Assembly (NCBI GenBank): GCA_020631895.1
Contig: JACKGR010000004.1
Coordinates: 15,260-79,259, forward strand
Length of the DNA stretch: 64,000 bases
Source of the DNA: Candidatus Nomurabacteria bacterium
GTDB lineage: Bacteria > Patescibacteriota > Saccharimonadia > Saccharimonadales > UBA7683
Direction of reading: 5' to 3'
Shown here: piece after piece, positions 9,801 through 55,961 of the stretch
How positions within the stretch are numbered: position 1 is the first letter of the stretch
Layout: each line of letters opens with the position of its first letter
The notes under the pieces: model-generated
Databases searched by the model: none
Told to the model about the DNA's origin: nothing
Seen by the model: only the letters and a program-made list of their open reading frames with translations
Program-made: the position numbers and the translations under genes

Positions 9801-11315
9801 ATGAAAAATAAACTTTCTAACATGACAAGCCCTTCCCATGGCTTGAAAGGCGAATCGAAGGGTTGGTTTAAGGGACAACAGCCAGTAGTTGCTCGTTTGC
9901 GACAATTATTAGCTAGCTTTAGTTTATTGGTAATGTTGACAGCATTGATGCTGGTCGGAAGTTTTGGTTTGCCGGCTCAGGATAATAACCAGGTAGCCGC
10001 CCAGTCAGCCCAGCCGACCTTTAAATGTGGTAATAGTTTTTATATTTCATCTGGTGATAATATCGGCGATCCGTCTCAGCTAAGCTTGGTTGTTTTTAGT
10101 GGGCAAACTGCTAGCTTACAAAACGTCGGCAGCCCAGCAGGCACATTTGACTACAATGGTATAGGCTTTAACCATCTCGATGGCTATATTTATGGTGTTA
10201 GCTCCGATAATAATCCGGGCGAAATTCTTCGCATTGGTTCTGACGGTAGTGCAGTGAGCTTAGGTATCCCAGCTGGTCTCCCGGTTGCTACCAACCTTGT
10301 TTATAATTCGGGTGCAGTGGGCGACAATGACCGATATTTCATACATCCAGCAACTGCAGGTGGAACACCTAATAACGACGTGTACGAGATTGATATCAGT
10401 ACTGCCACCCCCACAATTGTCGCTACGCATACTTTTAGTAGTTTTCAATACCAAGATTTTGATTTCAATCCACGAAATGGCATGGCCTATAGCTTTGATG
10501 GTTCTATTGATAGGGTAGTTCAGATAAATCTTAGTACCAACATCGTTACTCCGGTCGGGCCAGTCATAACATCCATTGGTTCTAATATCGGCGCGATCTT
10601 TTTTGATAGTGCTGACAACATGTACGTTGAGGCCAGTAACGGAAAAATCTTTAGGATTGCGATAACTAGTTTCGTTGTCACCGAGCTCGCAGACGGACCT
10701 AGTGTTTCTAGAGTTGACGGCACCTCCTGCCCCTATGCTCCAACCATCACCAAAGACGCTACCCCCCGCACTGTAGTTGCCGGTGGCGAAGTAACCTATA
10801 GCTACACCATCAGTAATGGGCATCCCACACTACCGATTACCGGCCTCGATTTTAGCGACACCATGGATAGTGGCCGAACCTATATAGCGGGTAGCTTAGA
10901 TAACTCCGAAGTGGGTGGTACCGCTAATAGCTACGGTGGCACTAACAGCCTGACCATTACCGATATTACTATTCCTCCCAATAGCAGTCAGGTAGTGACG
11001 GTAAAGGTGAAGATACCGAATGATATTACTGGAACCGTTACACTTAAGAACCAAGCCTGCATCGAAGGTGGTGGTTTGGGCAATCTAGCTCAGCCAATCT
11101 TTGATGAGATCTGCTCTGATGATCCAACTACCCCAGCCTTTGGTGACCCCACCAACATCGAGGTTAACCCAGCTCCACCAATTCCGGGTCCCCCAGAAAC
11201 TGGGCTGAATAAAACAAACAGCAACCAACTAGTAATTTCTTTTACGATTATCGGAATAGTGGTGCTGTTAGCTATTATTGCAAGATTAAAAAAGATAGGT
11301 GCGTTCTCCAAGTAA
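9801..11315 (+). CDS. Cell-wall-sorted surface protein: signal/TM, repeat (beta-propeller-like) domain, DUF11-type Ig-like domain, PPETG sorting signal
   Basis: 504 aa. N-terminal hydrophobic segment. YNGIGFNHLDGYIYGV-type repeats. TKDATPRTVVAGGEVTYSYTISNG resembles the DUF11 conserved repeat. C-terminus PPETG + LVISFTIIGIVVLLAIIA + RLKK tail. Confidence 0.85.
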   Translation: MKNKLSNMTSPSHGLKGESKGWFKGQQPVVARLRQLLASFSLLVMLTALMLVGSFGLPAQDNNQVAAQSAQPTFKCGNSFYISSGDNIGDPSQLSLVVFSGQTASLQNVGSPAGTFDYNGIGFNHLDGYIYGVSSDNNPGEILRIGSDGSAVSLGIPAGLPVATNLVYNSGAVGDNDRYFIHPATAGGTPNNDVYEIDISTATPTIVATHTFSSFQYQDFDFNPRNGMAYSFDGSIDRVVQINLSTNIVTPVGPVITSIGSNIGAIFFDSADNMYVEASNGKIFRIAITSFVVTELADGPSVSRVDGTSCPYAPTITKDATPRTVVAGGEVTYSYTISNGHPTLPITGLDFSDTMDSGRTYIAGSLDNSEVGGTANSYGGTNSLTITDITIPPNSSQVVTVKVKIPNDITGTVTLKNQACIEGGGLGNLAQPIFDEICSDDPTTPAFGDPTNIEVNPAPPIPGPPETGLNKTNSNQLVISFTIIGIVVLLAIIARLKKIGAFSK

Positions 11316-19163: not shown

Positions 19164-21761
19164 CTAGTGTTTCTTTTTTCGATTCTGACGTTGCTTTTTG
19201 CGAGTCTTTTTAATTGTTGTCTTCTTTTTACTTGTTGGAACACTGACTCGTTTGACTACAGTACCTTCAAAATCCTCTGCGCTAGAAGCCACTCCGGTGG
19301 TAATTTGGTTAGCGTTATCGGTTGCGGCTTGGGCGGCTTTTGTAAGTTCAGTCTCAATCGCTCGATTAATCTGGTGTGGTTGTAAGTGGTTAAGGCCTCG
19401 TACAACCTCGTTTCTCAGCGTCTGTTGCATGGTCTCAAATAGTGCCTGACCCTCACGTCGATACTCGACAAGCGGATCTTTTTGGCCAATTGATCTCCAG
19501 CCAATTCCGTTTCTTAAATGATCCATGTTCTCAAGGTGCTGCATCCAAAGTTGATCAAGAACCTGCATAACAGCCTCTCGCTCAATCTGACGCATAATGT
19601 CCGCACCAAGCGCACTCTCTCTATCTACGTATAGTTCGTAGGCAAACTCTTTAAATTTAGCTACTCGAGTTTTTTGATCTTCGGTCTTTTTAAGTTCCTT
19701 GAGTTGCTTCTCACTAAATGGGAATACAGTCTCTAACTCACGATAAAATTCTTTTTGATCAAGCGGTACTACACTAGCCCAGGTTTCAGCCTCTTGCTCA
19801 ACCATTTGTTTAATCTGCTTACTGATATCTTCGGCCATTAAGGCTCGGCGTCTAATAGTGTAGACGGCTTTACGATGACGGTTCATGACATCGTCGTACT
19901 GAACTACATTCTTACGGGTGTCATAGTTATAGCCTTCAACCTTCTTTTGAGCGTTCTCTAAAGTTCGGCTAACAGCTCTATTCTCAATCGCTTGATCTTC
20001 AGCGACTCCAAGACGCTCCATCAGTGAGGCTATTCTCTCGCCACCAAAGATTCTCATAAGATCGTCCTCACAACTAACGTAGAACTGTGTCATTCCAGGA
20101 TCACCCTGACGTCCACATCGTCCTCTTAGCTGGTTATCGATTCGTCTTGACTCATGTCTCTCTGATCCAAGAACCACCAAGCCACCTAGCTCTTTGACGC
20201 CTTCACCAAGTACGATATCCGTACCACGACCAGCAATGTTAGTTGCTAGAGTTACCGCACCTTTTTGACCGGCTTTAGCCACAATCGACGCTTCGCCCTC
20301 GTTGTTTTTTGCATTTAATACTTGATGAGGCACCTTTGCTTCGGTTAGTAACTCTGAAAGTCGCTCGTTATTTTCAATTGACACAGTACCAATCAAGACT
20401 GGCTGACCTTTTTTATTTAGGGTTTTAACCTCGCTAATTAAAGCCTTAAACTTCCCGGCTTCGGTTTTATATATTCGATCAATTCTATCTTCACGAGCTA
20501 TTTTACGGTTTGACGGAATCTCAATAACATCGATTCCATAAATCTGGTTGAATTCCTCGGCCTCAGTAGTTGCGGTACCGGTCATACCTGAGAGTTTGTC
20601 GTATAATCTAAAGTAGTTTTGAAAGCTAATCGTAGCAAGAGTCATGCTCTCCTCTTGAATCTCAACACCTTCTTTGGCTTCAATAGCTTGATGTAGCCCC
20701 TCATTATAACGACGGCCATGCATCAATCGACCGGTAAATTCATCAACTATGATAATCTCTCCATCGTTGGATACTACGTATTCTTTATCACGATGGAACA
20801 ATGTCTCGGCTTTAAGTGCTTGATCCATATGGTAGATTAATCTTATGTGATCAGCATCATACAGGTTGTCTACTTTCAGTAATTTCTGGACCTTTTCAAC
20901 ACCCGTGTCATTTAACGCAACGCTACGCCTTTTCTCGTCAAGCTCATAATCCTCGGGAACTAGCTGGCGAGCTATATCAGCAAACATTGAGTATCCTGCT
21001 CCGCTAGCACTTGATGGTGCTGAAATAATCAAAGGAGTTCTAGCCTCGTCAATCAAAATTGAATCTACCTCATCAACTATTGCAAAATTAAGCTCTCGCT
21101 GGCGTAGGTTCTCTACGGTATTAACCATATTGTCGCGTAGATAATCAAAGCCAAACTCGTTGTTTGTACCATAAGTTATATCAGCGGCGTAAGCTTCTTT
21201 TCTTGTACATGGCTTCAGCTTCTTCATTCTTTTATCGTCATGGTGAGAGTTGTCATAGTTTGGGTCAAAGATAAATGAGTTCTCGGCAATAATCACACCC
21301 GTGCTCATTCCAAGCGCATGATAAACCTCGGCCATCCAACCAGCATCACGCTGTGCAAGATAATCGTTGACAGTAACAACGTGTGCACCTTTACCACTCA
21401 GGGCATTAAGATATACCGGTAAGGTTGCAACCAAAGTTTTACCTTCACCTGTCTTCATCTCTGCCACATTGCCTTCGTGTAACGCCATTCCACCTATAAG
21501 CTGCACGTCAAAATGACGCATTCCTAATGTTCTTTTCGACACCTCTCTAACTACAGCAAATGCATGAGGTAAAATATCATCTAATGTCTTTTTATCTTTG
21601 AGTTGCTGACGGAAAACTTCTGTCTGCTTTTTTAAGGTTGGTAGCGACATCTTCTCGTATACAGTTTCGAGCTCATTAATTGGAGCAACCTTTTTGCGAA
21701 GCCTTTTAACGGTCTTTGCTTGTGGGTCACCAAAAATTTTGTTCAGCACTCTAGTCTTCAT
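19164..21761 (-). CDS. secA: Preprotein translocase ATPase SecA
   Basis: 865 aa. MKTGEGKT Walker A, DEVDSILIDEARTPLIIS DEAD-like motor motif, Lys-rich C-terminal tail. Confidence 0.97.
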   Translation of the reverse strand: MKTRVLNKIFGDPQAKTVKRLRKKVAPINELETVYEKMSLPTLKKQTEVFRQQLKDKKTLDDILPHAFAVVREVSKRTLGMRHFDVQLIGGMALHEGNVAEMKTGEGKTLVATLPVYLNALSGKGAHVVTVNDYLAQRDAGWMAEVYHALGMSTGVIIAENSFIFDPNYDNSHHDDKRMKKLKPCTRKEAYAADITYGTNNEFGFDYLRDNMVNTVENLRQRELNFAIVDEVDSILIDEARTPLIISAPSSASGAGYSMFADIARQLVPEDYELDEKRRSVALNDTGVEKVQKLLKVDNLYDADHIRLIYHMDQALKAETLFHRDKEYVVSNDGEIIIVDEFTGRLMHGRRYNEGLHQAIEAKEGVEIQEESMTLATISFQNYFRLYDKLSGMTGTATTEAEEFNQIYGIDVIEIPSNRKIAREDRIDRIYKTEAGKFKALISEVKTLNKKGQPVLIGTVSIENNERLSELLTEAKVPHQVLNAKNNEGEASIVAKAGQKGAVTLATNIAGRGTDIVLGEGVKELGGLVVLGSERHESRRIDNQLRGRCGRQGDPGMTQFYVSCEDDLMRIFGGERIASLMERLGVAEDQAIENRAVSRTLENAQKKVEGYNYDTRKNVVQYDDVMNRHRKAVYTIRRRALMAEDISKQIKQMVEQEAETWASVVPLDQKEFYRELETVFPFSEKQLKELKKTEDQKTRVAKFKEFAYELYVDRESALGADIMRQIEREAVMQVLDQLWMQHLENMDHLRNGIGWRSIGQKDPLVEYRREGQALFETMQQTLRNEVVRGLNHLQPHQINRAIETELTKAAQAATDNANQITTGVASSAEDFEGTVVKRVSVPTSKKKTTIKKTRKKQRQNRKKKH

Positions 21762-22052
21762 TTAATAATCATCCCTCTTTTTACAAATTCAGAAATACCC
21801 TCCTAGTATATCGTAGAAGGGTATTATTTTATACTGAATTTAAGCAAAATCATTGGCTCATCAGGATGGATCTTGGGTGATTCAGAAGTTATTTTATCAG
21901 AGTAAAACATAGCCGTAGCTACGTTGAGCGAAGAAAAATAATTTCTGGACATCCGAATACATTTTGGGAGTTGATGATTTTTGTGTAATTTCAGTATTGA
22001 CGATTTCGCTGCCATTACAGCTCATCAGCTTAGCTATTACTCTAAGAATCGT

Positions 22053-22087
22053 CTGAGAGGTGCGCCCCGAAGGGCGCTCACTCTCAG
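22053..22087 (-). terminator. Long GC-rich hairpin without U-tract downstream of the SPFH gene (I-shaped terminator candidate)
   Basis: CTGAGAG-GTG-CGCCC-CGAA-GGGCG-CTCA-CTCTCAG: about 14 paired positions. Located ~115 nt after the SPFH stop codon. Confidence 0.4.
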
Positions 22088-22201
22088 TGAAGATTTTAAT
22101 GGCGTCTTCCCGCCAACTGTTTTCCTCTGCGAGCACAGTAGGTGCGCTCACTTCATAGGATGACTCTACAGCCAGAGTTCCTCTACCCGAGAAGGGTGTT
22201 G

Positions 22202-23140
22202 CTATCCGTTTCCGGAGTTCGCGGACGGAACCACGATCGCGGACTGCGACCCAGGCCAGCAGGTGAAGCCCGCAGGCACCGGCTGACGTGCCTCCACCAT
22301 CTCGGCCAGGGTGTCGAAGCACCGACTGACCAGGACGTTGGGGGCGTTGCTGACGCTGTCCGAGAGCTCGTTGTTGGCTCGCGCCTGCGCCTCCGCCGTC
22401 AGCTCACGCTGTTCGGCGATGCGAGTGTTGGCGATCTCCGCCTGGTACTCGTTGAGGCGCCTCTGCGTGTTGTCGTCGTAGCGGATGAGGGGGATCGTGA
22501 TGCTCAGCACATCGATCCGACCGGCGACCCGCTCACGCATGTCCGTGAGCACATCGTCCGAGAGGTCCCCCAGATTGGCGAGGCCCTCGGCGTTCTCCGA
22601 ACTCACCGCGTCGAGCGGGTTGAACTCGCCCAGCACGGTGTTGAGGGCGGCGTTGAACTCCCTTGTCACTACCGAGTCACGGATCCTGTCCATGTCCCGG
22701 TAGTCGCGGTACAGCTCATCGCCCTCGCCTTCGGCGATCCGCCAACGGATCGTGTTGTCCACGCAGGCGGTCGACTGGTTGCCGATCCGGATGTCCGTGC
22801 ACCTACCGTCGAGCTCACCACCACCTTCGTCGGCGTAGGTGTCGGTCTGGATGCTCGCATCGAGCTCCGGGACCTTCTCCCACGGCCACTTGAGGTGGAT
22901 GCCGTTGCTCAGCGTGTCGGTGGGCCGGCCGAAGCTGGTCACCACGCCGATACGACGAGTCCCGACAACCGTGAGGCTGCTGAGAACGAGGAAGACGATG
23001 GCAAACGCCACCGCAACACCAGCGACGAACTTGGCGGTGCTGGCGCCATCATCCGTCTTGGCAACCTTCTTGCAGATCAGCGCCACGATCACGACCAGGA
23101 TGGCCAAGATCATGAACACGAAAAACCATGGAAGGGGCAT
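22202..23140 (-). CDS. SPFH/Band-7 (prohibitin/stomatin-like) membrane protein
   Basis: 312 aa. Two N-terminal TM helices. RRIGVVTSFGRPTDTLSNGIHLKWPWEKV SPFH core start. C-terminal coiled region AEIANTRIAEQRELTAEAQARA. AGGAGG SD at 23150..23145. Confidence 0.85.
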   Translation of the reverse strand: MPLPWFFVFMILAILVVIVALICKKVAKTDDGASTAKFVAGVAVAFAIVFLVLSSLTVVGTRRIGVVTSFGRPTDTLSNGIHLKWPWEKVPELDASIQTDTYADEGGGELDGRCTDIRIGNQSTACVDNTIRWRIAEGEGDELYRDYRDMDRIRDSVVTREFNAALNTVLGEFNPLDAVSSENAEGLANLGDLSDDVLTDMRERVAGRIDVLSITIPLIRYDDNTQRRLNEYQAEIANTRIAEQRELTAEAQARANNELSDSVSNAPNVLVSRCFDTLAEMVEARQPVPAGFTCWPGSQSAIVVPSANSGNG

Positions 23141-23703
23141 CGCCCCTCCTTTCTGTCGGGCTCCTCAAACTTCAAGGAACATTGGATACTCCAAACCTTC
23201 ACAGGAATGGCTGTAATATATTAACATATTTTTTTTAAATAATCAATATTATTACTTAGTTTATATCCTTTCTACTCGGGATGTGAATGTACGTGGTTTT
23301 AACGCGCCATGCGAGGTTTCGTCACAAAGTGACAGCTCCTCAGCCCGGTTGGATTAGATCCTCCCGTAACTATTTATTGGCACAGCAAATAGAACAGATA
23401 CAGGAGTATCTTTTGGCACACGAAAAATAATAATTAGTCACTAATAATTAAAAACAGTTTAGTTGTATAAATACTGAAAGTTACCGAGTAATAAAAAGAC
23501 TGGGCAGAGCTTGTATACAGATCTGTTAATAGATAAATTGTGTGTTATAAAGCAAAGTTAAACCACGAGCTTCTGTATCCTCTACAGTTAGCTCTAAACG
23601 CGTTCTAACTCCGTTTGACAACTATTTTTTTCTGAAATGTGCGTGCAATTTATTCAAATGCACTAAAGACATTATAGGTCATTTGGGTAATATTGTCAAT
23701 AGA

Positions 23704-24081
23704 CTATATTGCATCTTGTCGGGGCTTACGCCGTAAAAACTTACGCAAACGACCGTGCCTATCCTGATGGTCTCCGCCATGTGTGGCTTTATATTTGTTA
23801 AGTTGATTCTTGAGCTTCTTCTCAACAATATCTACTGCAGCAAACATATTAACAGTTGAATCTTTGGCTGTGATCATTTGTTCTGGCAAATGCATAATCA
23901 CCTCGCATTGATTACGATCAGACTTAGTTTTGAGCTCCTGAAGCACAACTTCAACTTTAATACTCTTACGAGCATGACGTGGAACAAATCGATCGAGGCG
24001 TCCTATTTTTTTACGAATATACTTTTTAATATCGGCTTTTGTCTCGTAGTGGATACCTGTTATATCGATTTGTGTAATCAT
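23704..24081 (-). CDS. hpf: Ribosome hibernation promoting factor / RaiA family
   Basis: 125 aa. MITQIDITGIHYETKADIKKYIRKKIGRLDRF and VDIVEKKLKNQLNKYK match the S30AE/HPF fold pattern. Confidence 0.85.
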   Translation of the reverse strand: MITQIDITGIHYETKADIKKYIRKKIGRLDRFVPRHARKSIKVEVVLQELKTKSDRNQCEVIMHLPEQMITAKDSTVNMFAAVDIVEKKLKNQLNKYKATHGGDHQDRHGRLRKFLRRKPRQDAI

Positions 24082-53150: not shown

Positions 53151-55961
53151 TTAAGAGCAACCAGAGGTTGTACCGCAAGATGTACAGACGTAACAACTAC
53201 CAGCACGTTGTGTAATGTTTCCGCAGCTATAGCAAAGCGGGGCAGTTTCTGCAGAACTTATTGTTCGTCTCTCATCTGAGATTGACTCATTTTGCTTGGA
53301 AGCTGAATCGATTGGAATACTAAGAATTGGCTGTTCAATCGACTGCGCATCCTGTAATGATGCCTTGGTATCATCTAGTAGATTTGCTTGATTTGCAGAT
53401 GCTTCAGCTTCTAGATCATCTAGACTAACCAATCCTAGCTCAAGTTGATCATCTAGACTGAGGTATGTTTTTGCGAGGCGCCTGAAAATGTAATCTACCA
53501 GACTTGAAGCCATTTTTATCTCAGTATCATCAGTAACTCCAGCCGGGGCAAACGAGGTGTTTATAAACGCCTTTACGTAGCTCTTTAGTGGCACGCCGTA
53601 CTGAAGGCCATGACTAACCGATATAGCAAATGCATCCATTATTCCTCCCAAAGTTGATCCTTGCTTAGCAATCTGTAGAAATAGCTCGCCCGGAGTTCCA
53701 TCATCGTACTCACCTACCGTTACAAAGCCTTTACTGTCAGCGACTCTGAACGCAAATGTTTTAGCTTGTCTAGTCCGAGGTAGTACGCGTCTTAGATGCG
53801 GCTGCATAGCAACGAGTTGCTCTGTAACTTGATCAGCTGTTTGAGGAACGTGAGCATCAAGCTTGTCTTCTGACTCAGTCTTGTCTTTTTTGTCAGACAT
53901 CGGCTGGGCAACTTTTGATCCATCACGATATATTGCTACCGCCTTTAGGCCGAGCTTCCACGAGACCATATGCAGTTCTTCAATGTCTTCGACTGTAGAT
54001 TGCTCGGGCATGTTTACAGTTTTGCTAATTGCTCCAGAGATAAATGGCTGTACAGCGCCCATCATCTTAACGTGACCCATATAATGGATTGCGTTTTCAC
54101 CAACTGCACAAGCAAAAGTATCATAGTGCTCCTTCTTCAGATGCGGTGCGCCCACTACTGTACTCCGCTCGTGGATATAATCCTCAATATCTTTAATCTG
54201 CGCCTGATTATACCCCATTGTAGTGAGAGCGCGCGGGACAGTCTGGTTAACAATTACCATATTTCCGCCACCAACAAGTTTTTTATACTTTGTTAGTGAG
54301 AAGTCCGGCTCAACTCCAGTTGTGTCACAATCCATCATAAAACCAATTGTTCCAGTTGGCGCCAAAACTGTTGCTTGAGAGTTTCTAACTCCGTATCTTT
54401 CTCCTAGCTCAACAGCATCATCCCATGCCTCTGCAGCTGCCGACAGAAGCTCTTCAGCCACTAGGCGCGGGTCAATCAGTCTAACAGCATCGCGATGCTG
54501 AGACAGCACCTTCATCATGCCTTCGCGGTCTTTATTAAATCCTGAGAAGGTTCCAACCTGTTTAGCTATCTTTGCGCTTGTAGCGTAGGCGTAGCCAGTC
54601 ATTATAGCTGTAATTGCAGCGGCTTGAGCTCTACCCTCATCACTGTCATAAGGTAACCCTTGAGCCATTAGTAGCGCTCCGAGGTTTGCATAGCCCATTC
54701 CAAGCTCACGGTAAGCTTTTGCATTTTTACTAATACTCTCAGTTGGATATTCAGAATAACCAACTAATATCTCCTGTGCAGTGAAAACTACTTCTACAGT
54801 TTGTTTAAACGCCTCAATGTCAAATGATCCATCCTCATTTAGATATTTCAACAAGTTTATTGATGCCAGGTTGCAAGCTGAATTATCGAGGTGCATGTAC
54901 TCTGAGCATGGGTTTGATCCGTTGATTCTACCGGCGTTGGGAGTAGTGTGCCAATGATTAATTGTTGTGTCGTACTGAAGACCTGGATCTGCGCATTCCC
55001 AAGCACTTTCAGCTATTTGTCGCCACAAATCTCGAGCTTTTGTAGTTTTATAAACCTTTTTATCTTTGACTCCAACTAACTGCCAATCCTCGTCGTTCTC
55101 AACCGCTTTCATAAATTCATCAGTTACACGCACTGAGTTATTAGCATTTTGATATTGCACACTAAAGATGTCGGTACCGTCCAAACTCATATCAAAGCCT
55201 GCTTCTTGCAGAACTCGAGCCTTACGCTCTTCAATCGCTTTACACCAAATAAACTCTTCAACATCGGGATGATCAATATTCATAATCACCATTTTTGCGG
55301 CTCGACGTGTCTTTCCACCAGATTTTATAGCACCAGCCGAGCTATCAGCTCCACGCATAAAACTAAGTGGGCCAGAAGCCTTACCTCCGCTTTGCCCCAA
55401 TGCTTCAACCGATGATCTAATAGAACTTACATTGACACCAGATCCAGATCCACCCTTAAAAATCATACCTTCTTCTGCATACCAATTAAGAATTGAAGGC
55501 ATCGTATCTTCTACTGCCAAAATAAAGCATGCACTAGCTTGCTGTGCACGAGAGGCAGCTCCAATGTTAAACCAAACCGGGGAGTTAAAGGCAGCTCTTT
55601 GTGACGCTAAAATGTATTTAAGTTCTGCGTTGAAAATTTCGGCTTGCTCGTGTGAACTAAAATAATCTTCTTGCTCGCCGTGACGAGTAATTGTATCTGC
55701 TACACGATTAATTAGGGTTTTGAGGCTATCTTCTCTATCTCTAGCTCCTGGAGTACCGCAAAAATATTTTTGACTAACAATGTTAATCGCATTCATGCTC
55801 CAAGTATCAGGAAACTCAACAGCCTTTTGTTCAAAAGCAATTTTTCCTGTTACTGGATTATCGATTTTTGAATCTCTTCGTACCCATTTGAACATATCAT
55901 ACGGATCAGTTCCTTCTTTTGTAAAATAGCGCCGAATATTGAGCACTGTAGCTTGTGCCAT
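53151..55961 (-). CDS. nrdJ: Class II (adenosylcobalamin-dependent) ribonucleotide reductase
   Basis: 936 aa. GGSGSGVNVSSIRS, NPCSEYM active-site Cys region, C-terminal Cys-rich tail CYSCGNITQRAGSCYVCTSCGTTSGCS. Confidence 0.92.
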   Translation of the reverse strand: MAQATVLNIRRYFTKEGTDPYDMFKWVRRDSKIDNPVTGKIAFEQKAVEFPDTWSMNAINIVSQKYFCGTPGARDREDSLKTLINRVADTITRHGEQEDYFSSHEQAEIFNAELKYILASQRAAFNSPVWFNIGAASRAQQASACFILAVEDTMPSILNWYAEEGMIFKGGSGSGVNVSSIRSSVEALGQSGGKASGPLSFMRGADSSAGAIKSGGKTRRAAKMVIMNIDHPDVEEFIWCKAIEERKARVLQEAGFDMSLDGTDIFSVQYQNANNSVRVTDEFMKAVENDEDWQLVGVKDKKVYKTTKARDLWRQIAESAWECADPGLQYDTTINHWHTTPNAGRINGSNPCSEYMHLDNSACNLASINLLKYLNEDGSFDIEAFKQTVEVVFTAQEILVGYSEYPTESISKNAKAYRELGMGYANLGALLMAQGLPYDSDEGRAQAAAITAIMTGYAYATSAKIAKQVGTFSGFNKDREGMMKVLSQHRDAVRLIDPRLVAEELLSAAAEAWDDAVELGERYGVRNSQATVLAPTGTIGFMMDCDTTGVEPDFSLTKYKKLVGGGNMVIVNQTVPRALTTMGYNQAQIKDIEDYIHERSTVVGAPHLKKEHYDTFACAVGENAIHYMGHVKMMGAVQPFISGAISKTVNMPEQSTVEDIEELHMVSWKLGLKAVAIYRDGSKVAQPMSDKKDKTESEDKLDAHVPQTADQVTEQLVAMQPHLRRVLPRTRQAKTFAFRVADSKGFVTVGEYDDGTPGELFLQIAKQGSTLGGIMDAFAISVSHGLQYGVPLKSYVKAFINTSFAPAGVTDDTEIKMASSLVDYIFRRLAKTYLSLDDQLELGLVSLDDLEAEASANQANLLDDTKASLQDAQSIEQPILSIPIDSASKQNESISDERRTISSAETAPLCYSCGNITQRAGSCYVCTSCGTTSGCS

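Follow-up and report, generated by a model that had tools for sequence, protein, structure and literature searches.

A strain-variable cassette slot between hpf and secA of Saccharibacteria, with an imported SPFH gene and a predicted hammerhead ribozyme

Saccharibacteria are ultrasmall epibionts with minimal genomes. A gene of deviant composition directly upstream of an essential gene in such a genome raises the question of how these organisms acquire new functions and express them. We addressed this question for a stretch of 64,000 nucleotides (nt) of contig JACKGR010000004.1 (assembly GCA_020631895.1, deposited as Candidatus Nomurabacteria bacterium); the whole stretch is referred to here as the window. 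On its minus strand, a gene for an SPFH/Band-7 protein of 312 amino acids (aa), SPFH-312, lies between hpf and secA. The initial annotation described this gene as a single high-GC island that was inserted once, probably from an actinobacterial donor, together with its own ribosome-binding site (RBS) and terminator. Comparison with related loci (designated by L numbers) gave a different picture. The hpf-secA gap is a strain-variable cassette slot in one genus-level clade of Saccharibacteria and not a single island. We consider it probable that the high-GC block is the payload, consisting of the open reading frame (ORF) only, of a modular expression cassette that ends in a hammerhead and occupies this slot.

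A foreign gene in a variable slot

The guanine-plus-cytosine (GC) content of the block at positions 22050-23212 is 0.619, compared with 0.403 for the rest of the window. Windows of 1 kb outside the block have a mean of 0.404 (standard deviation, 0.023; maximum, 0.479), which places the block about 10 standard deviations out. In agreement with the initial annotation, this block of about 1.16 kb carries exactly one gene, a single long ORF with two predicted transmembrane (TM) segments and a Pfam match. The GC content of the ORF is 0.638 (0.61, 0.44, and 0.86 at the three codon positions), and its third-position value (GC3) of 0.856 compares with 0.34 to 0.38 in hpf and secA. The compositionally foreign DNA is essentially the ORF alone (about 22202-23170), narrower than the block as first delimited; the segment 21999-22201 is a conserved structured element, termed D, which has a GC content of about 0.50 and lies outside the import. 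The next-highest GC values in the window, at 9900-10700 and 53500-53900, reach about 0.46 to 0.48 per 1-kb window.

The block is not an assembly chimera, because independent assemblies cross its junctions. One related locus (L001; SRR27686864) is 99.4% identical to the window across 21011-23672 and crosses both GC junctions, and a second (L002; SRR14610230) is 100% identical across 21462-23229 and joins the cassette on the secA side. Two further samples (L088 and L089) contain a copy that is 88% identical and has the same gene order as the window, hpf-SPFH-secA. This copy is joined to low-GC flanks on both sides in L088 and on the hpf side in L089, where D follows downstream. Both junctions, which had been singled out for checking, are thus spanned by L001 and L088.

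The host belongs to the Saccharibacteria, as initially supposed: the best named relatives of its SecA are from "Candidatus Saccharibacteria bacterium" (89%) and Saccharimonadales. When species-representative genomes were scanned with SecA as the anchor, 80 loci were obtained, nearly all labelled as Saccharibacteria, Saccharimonadales, or unclassified bacterial metagenome-assembled genomes; four carried other bin names.

Within the clade, unrelated payloads were found between like flanks, which contradicts a one-off event in the hpf-secA junction. Five payload types occupy the slot; three belong to the SPFH family, and all are predicted membrane or envelope proteins, with GC3 values of 0.70 to 0.93. 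Besides SPFH-312 (type T1), the slot holds a 570-aa TM protein without a Pfam match in L003 (GC, 0.62; SecA identity, 94%) and a homologue of that protein in L008 (SecA, 84%). In L004 (SecA, 94%), it holds a 395-aa Band_7 protein that is 23.5% identical to SPFH-312, and in L005 and L006 (SecA, 89%), it holds NfeD with a 496-aa flotillin. L005 is a tandem array, U-cassette-D-U-cassette-D-secA, in which U is the 5' leader described below; its first cassette, encoding a 172-aa TM protein and a 203-aa lipoprotein, was found again in L087. The description as a single-gene island therefore gives way to that of a recurrent slot with at least five payload types and a tandem array.

In sister lineages (SecA, 86%), the slot is empty and hpf directly adjoins secA, an adjacency that the initial annotation had noted for Bacillus subtilis. 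In one such empty gap (L093:5876-5932, also in L094 to L102), a covariance model built on the hammerhead of the secA slot, R1, detected a decayed hammerhead-like remnant (37 bits) with a C3-to-U change and broken stems I and II. This remnant suggests either that the slot or the ribozyme already existed before today's cassettes or that the L093 lineage has lost a cassette. In the more distantly related Saccharibacteria loci, secA is not preceded by any large high-GC block (500 nt or longer). The filter used (at least 500 nt at the median plus 0.13) missed a cassette of about 560 nt in L075, and smaller blocks may exist. In a group with SecA at 89% (L105 to L108, at least four assemblies), the contigs end about 540 nt upstream of secA, in a low-GC ORF and with no D. 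The coincidence of these ends hints at population heterogeneity or a repeat there. Every contig of the P0127 group breaks off shortly before secA, again a hint of heterogeneity.

Turnover of the slot can be followed within a species. The flanks of L003 and L004 are 95 to 96% identical at the nucleotide level, with SecA 99.9% identical in amino acids and 2.4% synonymous change, and the payloads are unrelated. Identity between the two loci drops sharply at two points, 159 nt past the hpf stop codon and inside D, between hairpins H4 and H5. From these breakpoints, the exchanged module comprises its own promoter (TTGACA-N18-TATAAT in L003; an extended -10 promoter in L004) together with U, the ORF, and the 5' part of D. 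When the window is compared with L088, identity is 88 to 94% in the slot region, 79% in hpf, and 82% in secA, and synonymous change is 0.20 in the SPFH gene and 0.46 to 0.50 in the flanks. Because the slot is closer than its flanks, this comparison suggests that slot contents moved between lineages after their core genomes had diverged. Saccharibacteria are naturally competent, and homologous recombination integrates DNA with flanks of about 0.5 to 1 kb (Wang et al. 2023, PMC10633639). Natural transformation followed by homologous recombination is a plausible route for slot turnover.

Neither the window nor the related loci contain an integrase, a transposase, a tRNA or att site, or flanking direct repeats, which extends the initial observation that integrase, transposase, and target duplication were missing. 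Readings of the locus as a transposon, a genomic island, or an integrative element were rejected for lack of an integrase, transposase, tRNA, or target duplication.

The RNA frame and the hammerhead motif

The flanks of the gene, at first taken for AT-rich noncoding DNA, contain a promoter with a full 12/12 consensus match and the structured elements U and D (Table 1). U is made up of three hairpins, which show compensatory changes, and then a conserved tail, GUACAUUCACAUYCCC..GAAAGG. In most cassettes, this tail supplies an RBS 7 to 11 nt before the start codon, and cassettes other than T1 begin 31 to 41 nt after the start of the tail motif. The SPFH gene does have an RBS of its own, as annotated.

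D (22201-21999) forms successive hairpins, H0 to H6, and is paired in 93% of alignment cells, compared with 36 to 46% when the partners are slid; it shows seven compensatory pairs and a fold z-score of -4.9. The GC-rich hairpin at 22053-22087 exists as described. However, it had been read as an actinobacterial-style terminator brought in with the gene, and it corresponds to helices H5 and H6 of D, which abut the hammerhead motif. H5 is paired in 100% and H6 in 90% of cells, with one compensatory pair each, in loci with unrelated cassettes. Since the hairpin is conserved whichever payload it adjoins and remains with secA at the breakpoint, it belongs to the locus and not to the import. No intrinsic terminator was found after the SPFH ORF.

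At the gathering score, Rfam detected no family, and no tRNA, rRNA, or riboswitch, in the whole 64-kb window, and a permissive search of the region and related loci returned nothing for U or D. The permissive search also gave a weak ROOL match of 20.7 bits, below threshold. The exact D-core pattern occurred in one JGI contig and in no viral contig, and D is therefore not a dispersed repeat.

Several smaller features of the frame were recorded. Unrelated payload ORFs end alike (window 22202-22213, L003, L008, L005, and L088), in GGC AAC TAG or GGA AAC GGA TAG; the payload-D junction seems to lie at or just inside the 3' end of the ORF, with C termini of G-N or N-G. In the D-secA spacer, 19-nt inverted repeats (21831-21849 and 21979-21997, 84% complementary) enclose about 130 nt, and this stretch may be a small insertion such as a miniature inverted-repeat transposable element. 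Just upstream of the secA RBS is a 12-nt hairpin (21794-21805 and 21814-21825, 92% complementary). The surrounding secA leader (GGGTATTTCTGAATTTGTAAAAAGAGGGATG) is conserved in L003, L004, and L105, and the hairpin region may be a secA leader element.

Directly 3' of H5/H6 lies a type-III hammerhead motif, GACGAU-U/CUUAG-(loop)-CUAAG-CUGAUGA-GCUG-(loop)-CAGC-GAA-AUCGUC, in which the slash marks the predicted cleavage site. Its topology is that of type III: loops close stems I and II, and stem III is open. The core (C3 U4 G5 A6 N7 G8 A9, G12 A13 A14, the pair A15.1-U16.1, and H17 other than G) is exact in the window and in all eight copies of this subtype, termed a, with H17 being U or C depending on the copy. 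Across the eight copies, the stems are paired in 100% of cells, with two compensatory pairs in stem I of the most divergent copy. RNAalifold mis-pairs the hammerhead core, and the canonical structure was therefore tested explicitly. Folded in isolation, the 55 nt give a three-helix junction as the structure of minimum energy.

Hammerheads were also found at other sites. Model R1 detected no copies in about 80 distant secA loci; it was too sequence-specific and missed a second subtype, b, and we therefore wrote a generic scanner. In 1.37 Mb of fetched loci, this scanner gave 19 hits, compared with 0.05 per dinucleotide shuffle, and all 19 lie just downstream of high-GC ORF blocks. In L090 and in L091/L092, homologues of SPFH-312 (70% and 62% identical) form islands of 0.63 to 0.64 GC beside gltX in genomes of about 0.50 GC. 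The lineage of this gltX slot was obtained from GluRS, whose named relatives are all Saccharibacteria, Saccharimonadales, or Patescibacteria; tblastn of the flank proteins of L090 and L091 against the fetched loci gave no lineage signal. Each of these islands is followed, 137 to 203 nt past the stop codon, by a subtype-b type-III hammerhead with stem II GUCC-AAAA-GGAC. The high-GC block that precedes the island in L090 and in L091 likewise has a hammerhead after it. These preceding blocks encode a HATPase_c_3 protein with a 232-aa partner (L090:1204-3681) and a DinG-like helicase (L091:2984-4798; PADLOC type-IV DinG, 1e-43), and they look like defence-type cargo rather than membrane proteins. 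For the payloads of the secA slot, no match to a PADLOC defence-system model was obtained, and a defence-system reading of these payloads was rejected on that ground.

The five distinct copies of subtype b are fully paired (100% of cells), with compensatory changes in 9 of 16 pairs; none of 500 shuffles reached the observed values. The core is exact in four of the five, the second copy of L090 having a U4-to-C change. L075 (SecA, 64%), from another Saccharibacteria lineage, presents a further arrangement, in which a 0.62-GC ORF on the opposite strand between serS and hpf is followed by a subtype-b hammerhead 33 nt past its stop codon. The 5' end of this ORF is overlapped by a weak RAGATH-10 match (L075:5228-5293, minus strand; 29.5 bits; E, 0.1; gathering score, 41.2). 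The definition of RAGATH RNAs is based on association with genes that neighbor hammerhead and twister ribozymes.

These features are consistent with the following mechanism. Transcription from the consensus promoter after hpf, or from module promoters, would run through U, the ORF, and D toward secA, and it would continue into secA because no intrinsic terminator follows the ORF. The hammerhead would then cleave itself between 22047 and 22046. The resulting cassette mRNA would have its 3' end capped by the hairpins of D and bear a 2',3'-cyclic phosphate, and the secA mRNA would start with a 5'-OH and the ribozyme body. By this cleavage, the fates of the two mRNAs would be uncoupled, and foreign genes could therefore be installed or swapped upstream of an essential gene. 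Strains would exchange cassettes through homologous recombination within the conserved flanks.

The coordinates of all features are given in Table 1. The genes of the neighborhood (serS, hpf, secA, an M16 peptidase, a Mur ligase, and prfB) are housekeeping genes, and the Pfam domain Ribosomal_S30AE is present in the hpf orthologues of L003 and L004.

Table 1. Features of the hpf-secA slot, in order of transcription (positions in the window)
Feature	Position	Strand	Basis and remarks
hpf, ribosome hibernation factor, 125 aa; upstream slot boundary	23704..24081	-	ORF
Sigma-70-type promoter TTGACA-17-TATAAT, directed into the slot	23671..23699	-	12/12 consensus, just after hpf; conserved in L003 and L004
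Leader common to loci with different cassettes	23543..23670	-	Alignment; 23543 end approximate; host side of left breakpoint
U element, 5' leader	23266..23398	-	nhmmer E 6e-31 and alignments; before every cassette type
AT-rich spacer of the T1 (SPFH-312) cassette, about 110 nt	23156..23265	-	Window/L001 and L088/L089 only; between U tail and own RBS
RBS of the SPFH gene, GGAGG	23145..23149	-	Sequence reading
Payload, 312-aa two-TM SPFH/Band-7 protein	22202..23140	-	ORF, composition, Pfam, fold; sole compositionally foreign DNA of the region
D, 5' part, hairpins H0-H4	22089..22201	-	Alignment and pair counts; starts at stop codon; travels with cassette on exchange
D, helices H5/H6 (GC-rich hairpin)	22053..22087	-	Pair counts; stays with secA flank in L003/L004 exchange
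Type-III hammerhead motif	21999..22053	-	All core nucleotides and three stems; predicted cleavage 22047/22046
D-secA spacer	21762..21998	-	Variable, 228 nt in window and 63 nt in L088; last ~45 nt are conserved secA leader with RBS
secA, 865 aa; downstream slot boundary	19164..21761	-	ORF, SecA matches

The SPFH protein and its origin

SPFH-312 matches PF01145 (Band_7/SPFH) over residues 58-252 (E, 9.8e-16; 58.7 bits against a cutoff of 23.6) and phrog_200, an actinophage band-7-like membrane protein family, at an E value of 4.4e-46. Orthology to HflK or HflC was rejected: the NCBIfam models TIGR01932, TIGR01933, and NF008259 scored 23.6, 12, and 13.5 bits against 134, 159, and 427, and paired HflK/HflC genes are not present. 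The AlphaFold model (predicted local distance difference test, 69.7) consists of helices 5-26 and 30-55, forming a TM hairpin, a beta/alpha SPFH core, and a long helix at 223-263. The top Foldseek matches were HflK/C, prohibitin, and stomatin (E, 4.5e-9; probability, 1.0), with low TM-scores of about 0.35, and erlin and flotillin were also among the best (E, about 5e-9). A sequence profile search against the PDB gave no match, so that the SPFH kinship among known structures was seen by fold comparison alone.

The gene was presumed to be intact, and the window copy does retain every residue that is invariant in the family. Four cysteines of the soluble domain vary little or not at all within the family, and lysine is abundant in the loop that joins the two N-terminal TM helices. 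On account of the four cysteines, the sequence suggests that the SPFH domain is extracytoplasmic and disulfide bonded. SPFH-312 most likely serves as a membrane scaffold that forms rings or cages, probably SPFH-type oligomers anchored by the N-terminal TM hairpin.

Relatives of the payload point to the actinobacterial world. In a tblastn search of 72,556 plasmids, the SPFH matches were all from Actinobacteria (Tsukamurella, Arthrobacter, and Mycobacterium), and an unrelated payload, T2, matched only Curtobacterium and Pseudarthrobacter megaplasmids. Among 50,697 phage records, there were 292 matches, all in actinophages and annotated as band-7-like membrane proteins; identities were 44 to 47% (Rhodococcus and Gordonia phages), the best being 46 to 47% over 75% of the protein. 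The named protein matches were from Aeromicrobium (52 to 58%), and cluster-member names added no other. In a neighbor-joining tree, the four known Saccharibacteria copies fall into one clade with the top 30 or so hits. Two sequences deeper in this clade, P0026 and P0023, share 56% and 59% identity with SPFH-312 overall and 64% and 66% over residues 69-310. Their contigs are uniformly high in GC (0.60 and 0.66) and phage-like, with DNA ligase, MoxR-AAA and VWA proteins, DUF6744, and many small co-directional ORFs. At the nucleotide level, the similarity to these contigs extends only over 22251-22975, within the ORF.

The Arthrobacter plasmid NZ_CP104273.1 (L109) and the Curtobacterium plasmid pS16 (NZ_CP126255.1; L110) carry homologues of T1 and T2. 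These 400- to 550-kb "non-mobilizable plasmids" contain mostly hypothetical genes together with RNA ligase, RtcB, and oligoribonuclease. A similar gene content (RNA ligase and RtcB) is seen in large actinophages, for example, Rhodococcus phage Peregrin, and the two replicons may be phage-like.

Deviant GC3, combined with relatives in phage-like contigs, actinophages, and Actinobacteria, marks the gene as horizontally acquired, and the sequence comparisons make an origin in the actinobacterial/actinophage gene pool well supported. Of the cross-phylum acquisition from an actinobacterial donor that was originally proposed, the foreign composition and the actinobacterial-type affinity stand. The nearest outside relatives, however, are on phage-like contigs, and a phage is more likely to have been the vehicle than a host chromosome. 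The interleaving of sequences in the distance tree suggests more than one transfer. No hammerheads were found beside the homologues in actinophages, actinobacterial megaplasmids, or phage-like contigs. A joint arrival of gene and hammerhead was rejected, as these homologues have no hammerhead nearby and nucleotide similarity stops inside the ORF.

Alternative explanations and biological meaning

Several points weigh against the reading as a hammerhead-terminated cassette in a variable slot. Read-through into secA and the use of the promoters are deduced from the sequence, and self-cleavage at 22047/22046 is predicted from the motif. No hammerhead copy reaches the Rfam gathering score (48.5 bits for RF00008), and the window hammerhead matched only HH9, below gathering (18.7 bits; E, 0.25). 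Covariation in subtype a comes from stem I of one divergent copy, and stems II and III hardly vary. Translation may be limited by the GC3 of 0.86, given the value of about 0.35 for the genes of the host itself. The close clade was sampled at about 10 distinct loci, a small sample. No recombinase or other mobility function was found that would account for the precise first capture of an ORF between U and D. Finally, with outside relatives only 64 to 66% identical, neither a direct donor nor the number or direction of transfers can be named.

A more far-reaching interpretation, which we put forward tentatively, is that such slots are ribozyme-insulated landing pads, into which bare ORFs have been installed repeatedly, either from phages of actinobacterial hosts or from the hosts themselves. 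On this interpretation, the ORFs would be mostly of the envelope/SPFH kind, natural transformation would shuffle them, and the whole would form an integrase-free cassette system defined by RNA.

Type-III hammerheads are known to flank variable genes in prophages, typically in clusters, and it was proposed that they divide long transcripts into mRNAs of gene length (Perreault et al. 2011, PMC3088659). The slot might accordingly be a remnant or outpost of a Saccharibacteria phage or mobile element, with U, D, and the hammerhead serving as phage transcript-processing signals. We regard this explanation as unlikely, although the exchanged modules have their own promoters, the payloads resemble phage accessory genes, and 48 IMG/VR viral contigs contain the subtype-b core, 41 of them with full hammerheads (58 in total), often two or three per contig. 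Phage structural, replication, and integrase genes are missing within about 6 kb at every locus and throughout the 64-kb window. Moreover, no viral contig contained the hammerhead subtype of the window, which is present as a single copy in each genome fragment, and the viral contigs with hammerheads lack a comparable GC contrast.

It is similarly improbable, in our estimation, that the slot is real but its hammerhead-like sequence catalytically inactive, with D acting as a structured 3' untranslated region or terminator-like stabilizer and as a homology arm. The subthreshold Rfam scores (for subtype b, RF00008 gave 34.7, 33.6, and 29.2 bits, with E values of 6e-4 to 0.02), the near invariance of stems II and III in the window subtype, the U4-to-C change in the second L090 copy, and the clear decay of the L093 copy would all fit inactivity. 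On the other hand, the 13 core positions are exact in every subtype-a copy and in four of five subtype-b copies, stems I and III vary freely with compensation, and the isolated sequence folds as a three-way junction. A conserved unpaired core is hard to explain without catalysis.

Less credible still is the one-off insertion of a chromosomal gene from an actinobacterial host, with its own RBS and a U-less GC-rich terminator, into an inert intergenic site. The high GC and GC3, the Aeromicrobium homologues, the GGAGG motif, and the lack of a mobility gene agree with such an event, as does the fact that cultivated Saccharibacteria live on Actinobacteria (PMC10633639). Its notions of a single island and of an imported terminator are already contradicted, however, by at least five unrelated high-GC payload types and the tandem array and by the conserved host-side sequence adjoining the hammerhead. 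The T1 cassette is, in addition, common to a lineage whose flanking genes are 79 to 82% identical, the foreign similarity ends inside the ORF, and the closest outside relatives are on phage-like contigs. Last, a chimera or binning artifact in which high-GC actinobacterial reads were joined into a low-GC contig, which the abrupt GC steps and the metagenomic source might bring to mind, is refuted for practical purposes by four further assemblies from four different runs (L001, L002, L088, and L089) that join the cassette to low-GC flanks and by the recurrence of the U and D junction architecture in JGI, NCBI, and Logan records.

Among known systems, the best-supported description of the locus is a variant of the hammerhead-flanked variable genes of prophages, placed in a chromosomal housekeeping locus and carrying cross-phylum ORFs. 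As in prophages, the hammerheads directly follow genes or short blocks of inconstant identity and occur in tandem arrangements, and subtype b is likewise clustered in viral contigs. In contrast to prophages, the slot lies between housekeeping genes of Saccharibacteria, with no phage genes nearby, and its payloads have a GC3 of 0.70 to 0.93 compared with 0.34 to 0.53 in host genes. The secA slot also has a conserved 5' leader and a multi-hairpin domain of about 150 nt before the ribozyme, and it turns over within a species. A full-text literature search found no relevant paper that pairs a hammerhead with Saccharibacteria or Patescibacteria.

Phage morons are independent accessory transcription units of deviant composition between conserved genes. 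Like them, the cassette is a self-contained module of promoter, leader, ORF, and 3' signal, deviates in GC, and differs between close relatives; unlike them, it resides on a cellular chromosome, and its 3' end is a ribozyme motif and not an intrinsic terminator. With integron arrays, the slot shares one fixed promoter-proximal site, strain-variable payloads of ORF size, and tandem stacking. It differs in the lack of intI, in breakpoints that look like homologous recombination in conserved flanks, and in D, which is a multi-hairpin element of about 200 nt with a hammerhead, unlike an attC-type imperfect palindrome. An integron was rejected because there is no integrase gene, D is not attC, and the neighbors are housekeeping genes. 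RiboJ-type ribozyme insulators place a hammerhead between the promoter or 5' untranslated region and the gene. The hammerhead of the slot would similarly give the secA mRNA a context-independent 5' end, although it is a natural element and this function is deduced.

SPFH-312 itself resembles the actinophage band-7-like proteins of PHROG 200, as well as HflK/C, prohibitin, stomatin, and flotillin, in its Band_7 domain, its PHROG 200 match at 44 to 47% identity, and its fold. It departs from PHROG 200 and the cage-forming SPFH proteins in being no HflK or HflC orthologue and in having the N-terminal TM hairpin and the four conserved cysteines. Gene transfer between Saccharimonadia or other Patescibacteria and their actinobacterial hosts has been reported (bioRxiv 10.64898/2026.09.16.751625; PMC12455944). 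The locus agrees with these reports as a cross-phylum acquisition from the world of the host; unlike the locus, the bioRxiv preprint describes no dedicated slot, conserved RNA flanks, or ribozyme.

The locus shows a specific and repeatable route by which Saccharibacteria gain functions, namely, ORF-sized imports into a fixed slot adjacent to secA. The function of the hammerheads that flank variable prophage genes is a long-standing question. If the ribozyme is active, a natural role for chromosomal hammerheads of bacteria would be to insulate or process swapped-in genes upstream of an essential gene. SPFH scaffolds, which make up three of the five payload types, represent a function that this lineage selects repeatedly, suggesting a role at the epibiont envelope or at the interface with the host. 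Should the tentative landing-pad interpretation prove true, an epibiont with a tiny genome would be able to try out genes of the host world alongside an essential gene while avoiding polar effects.

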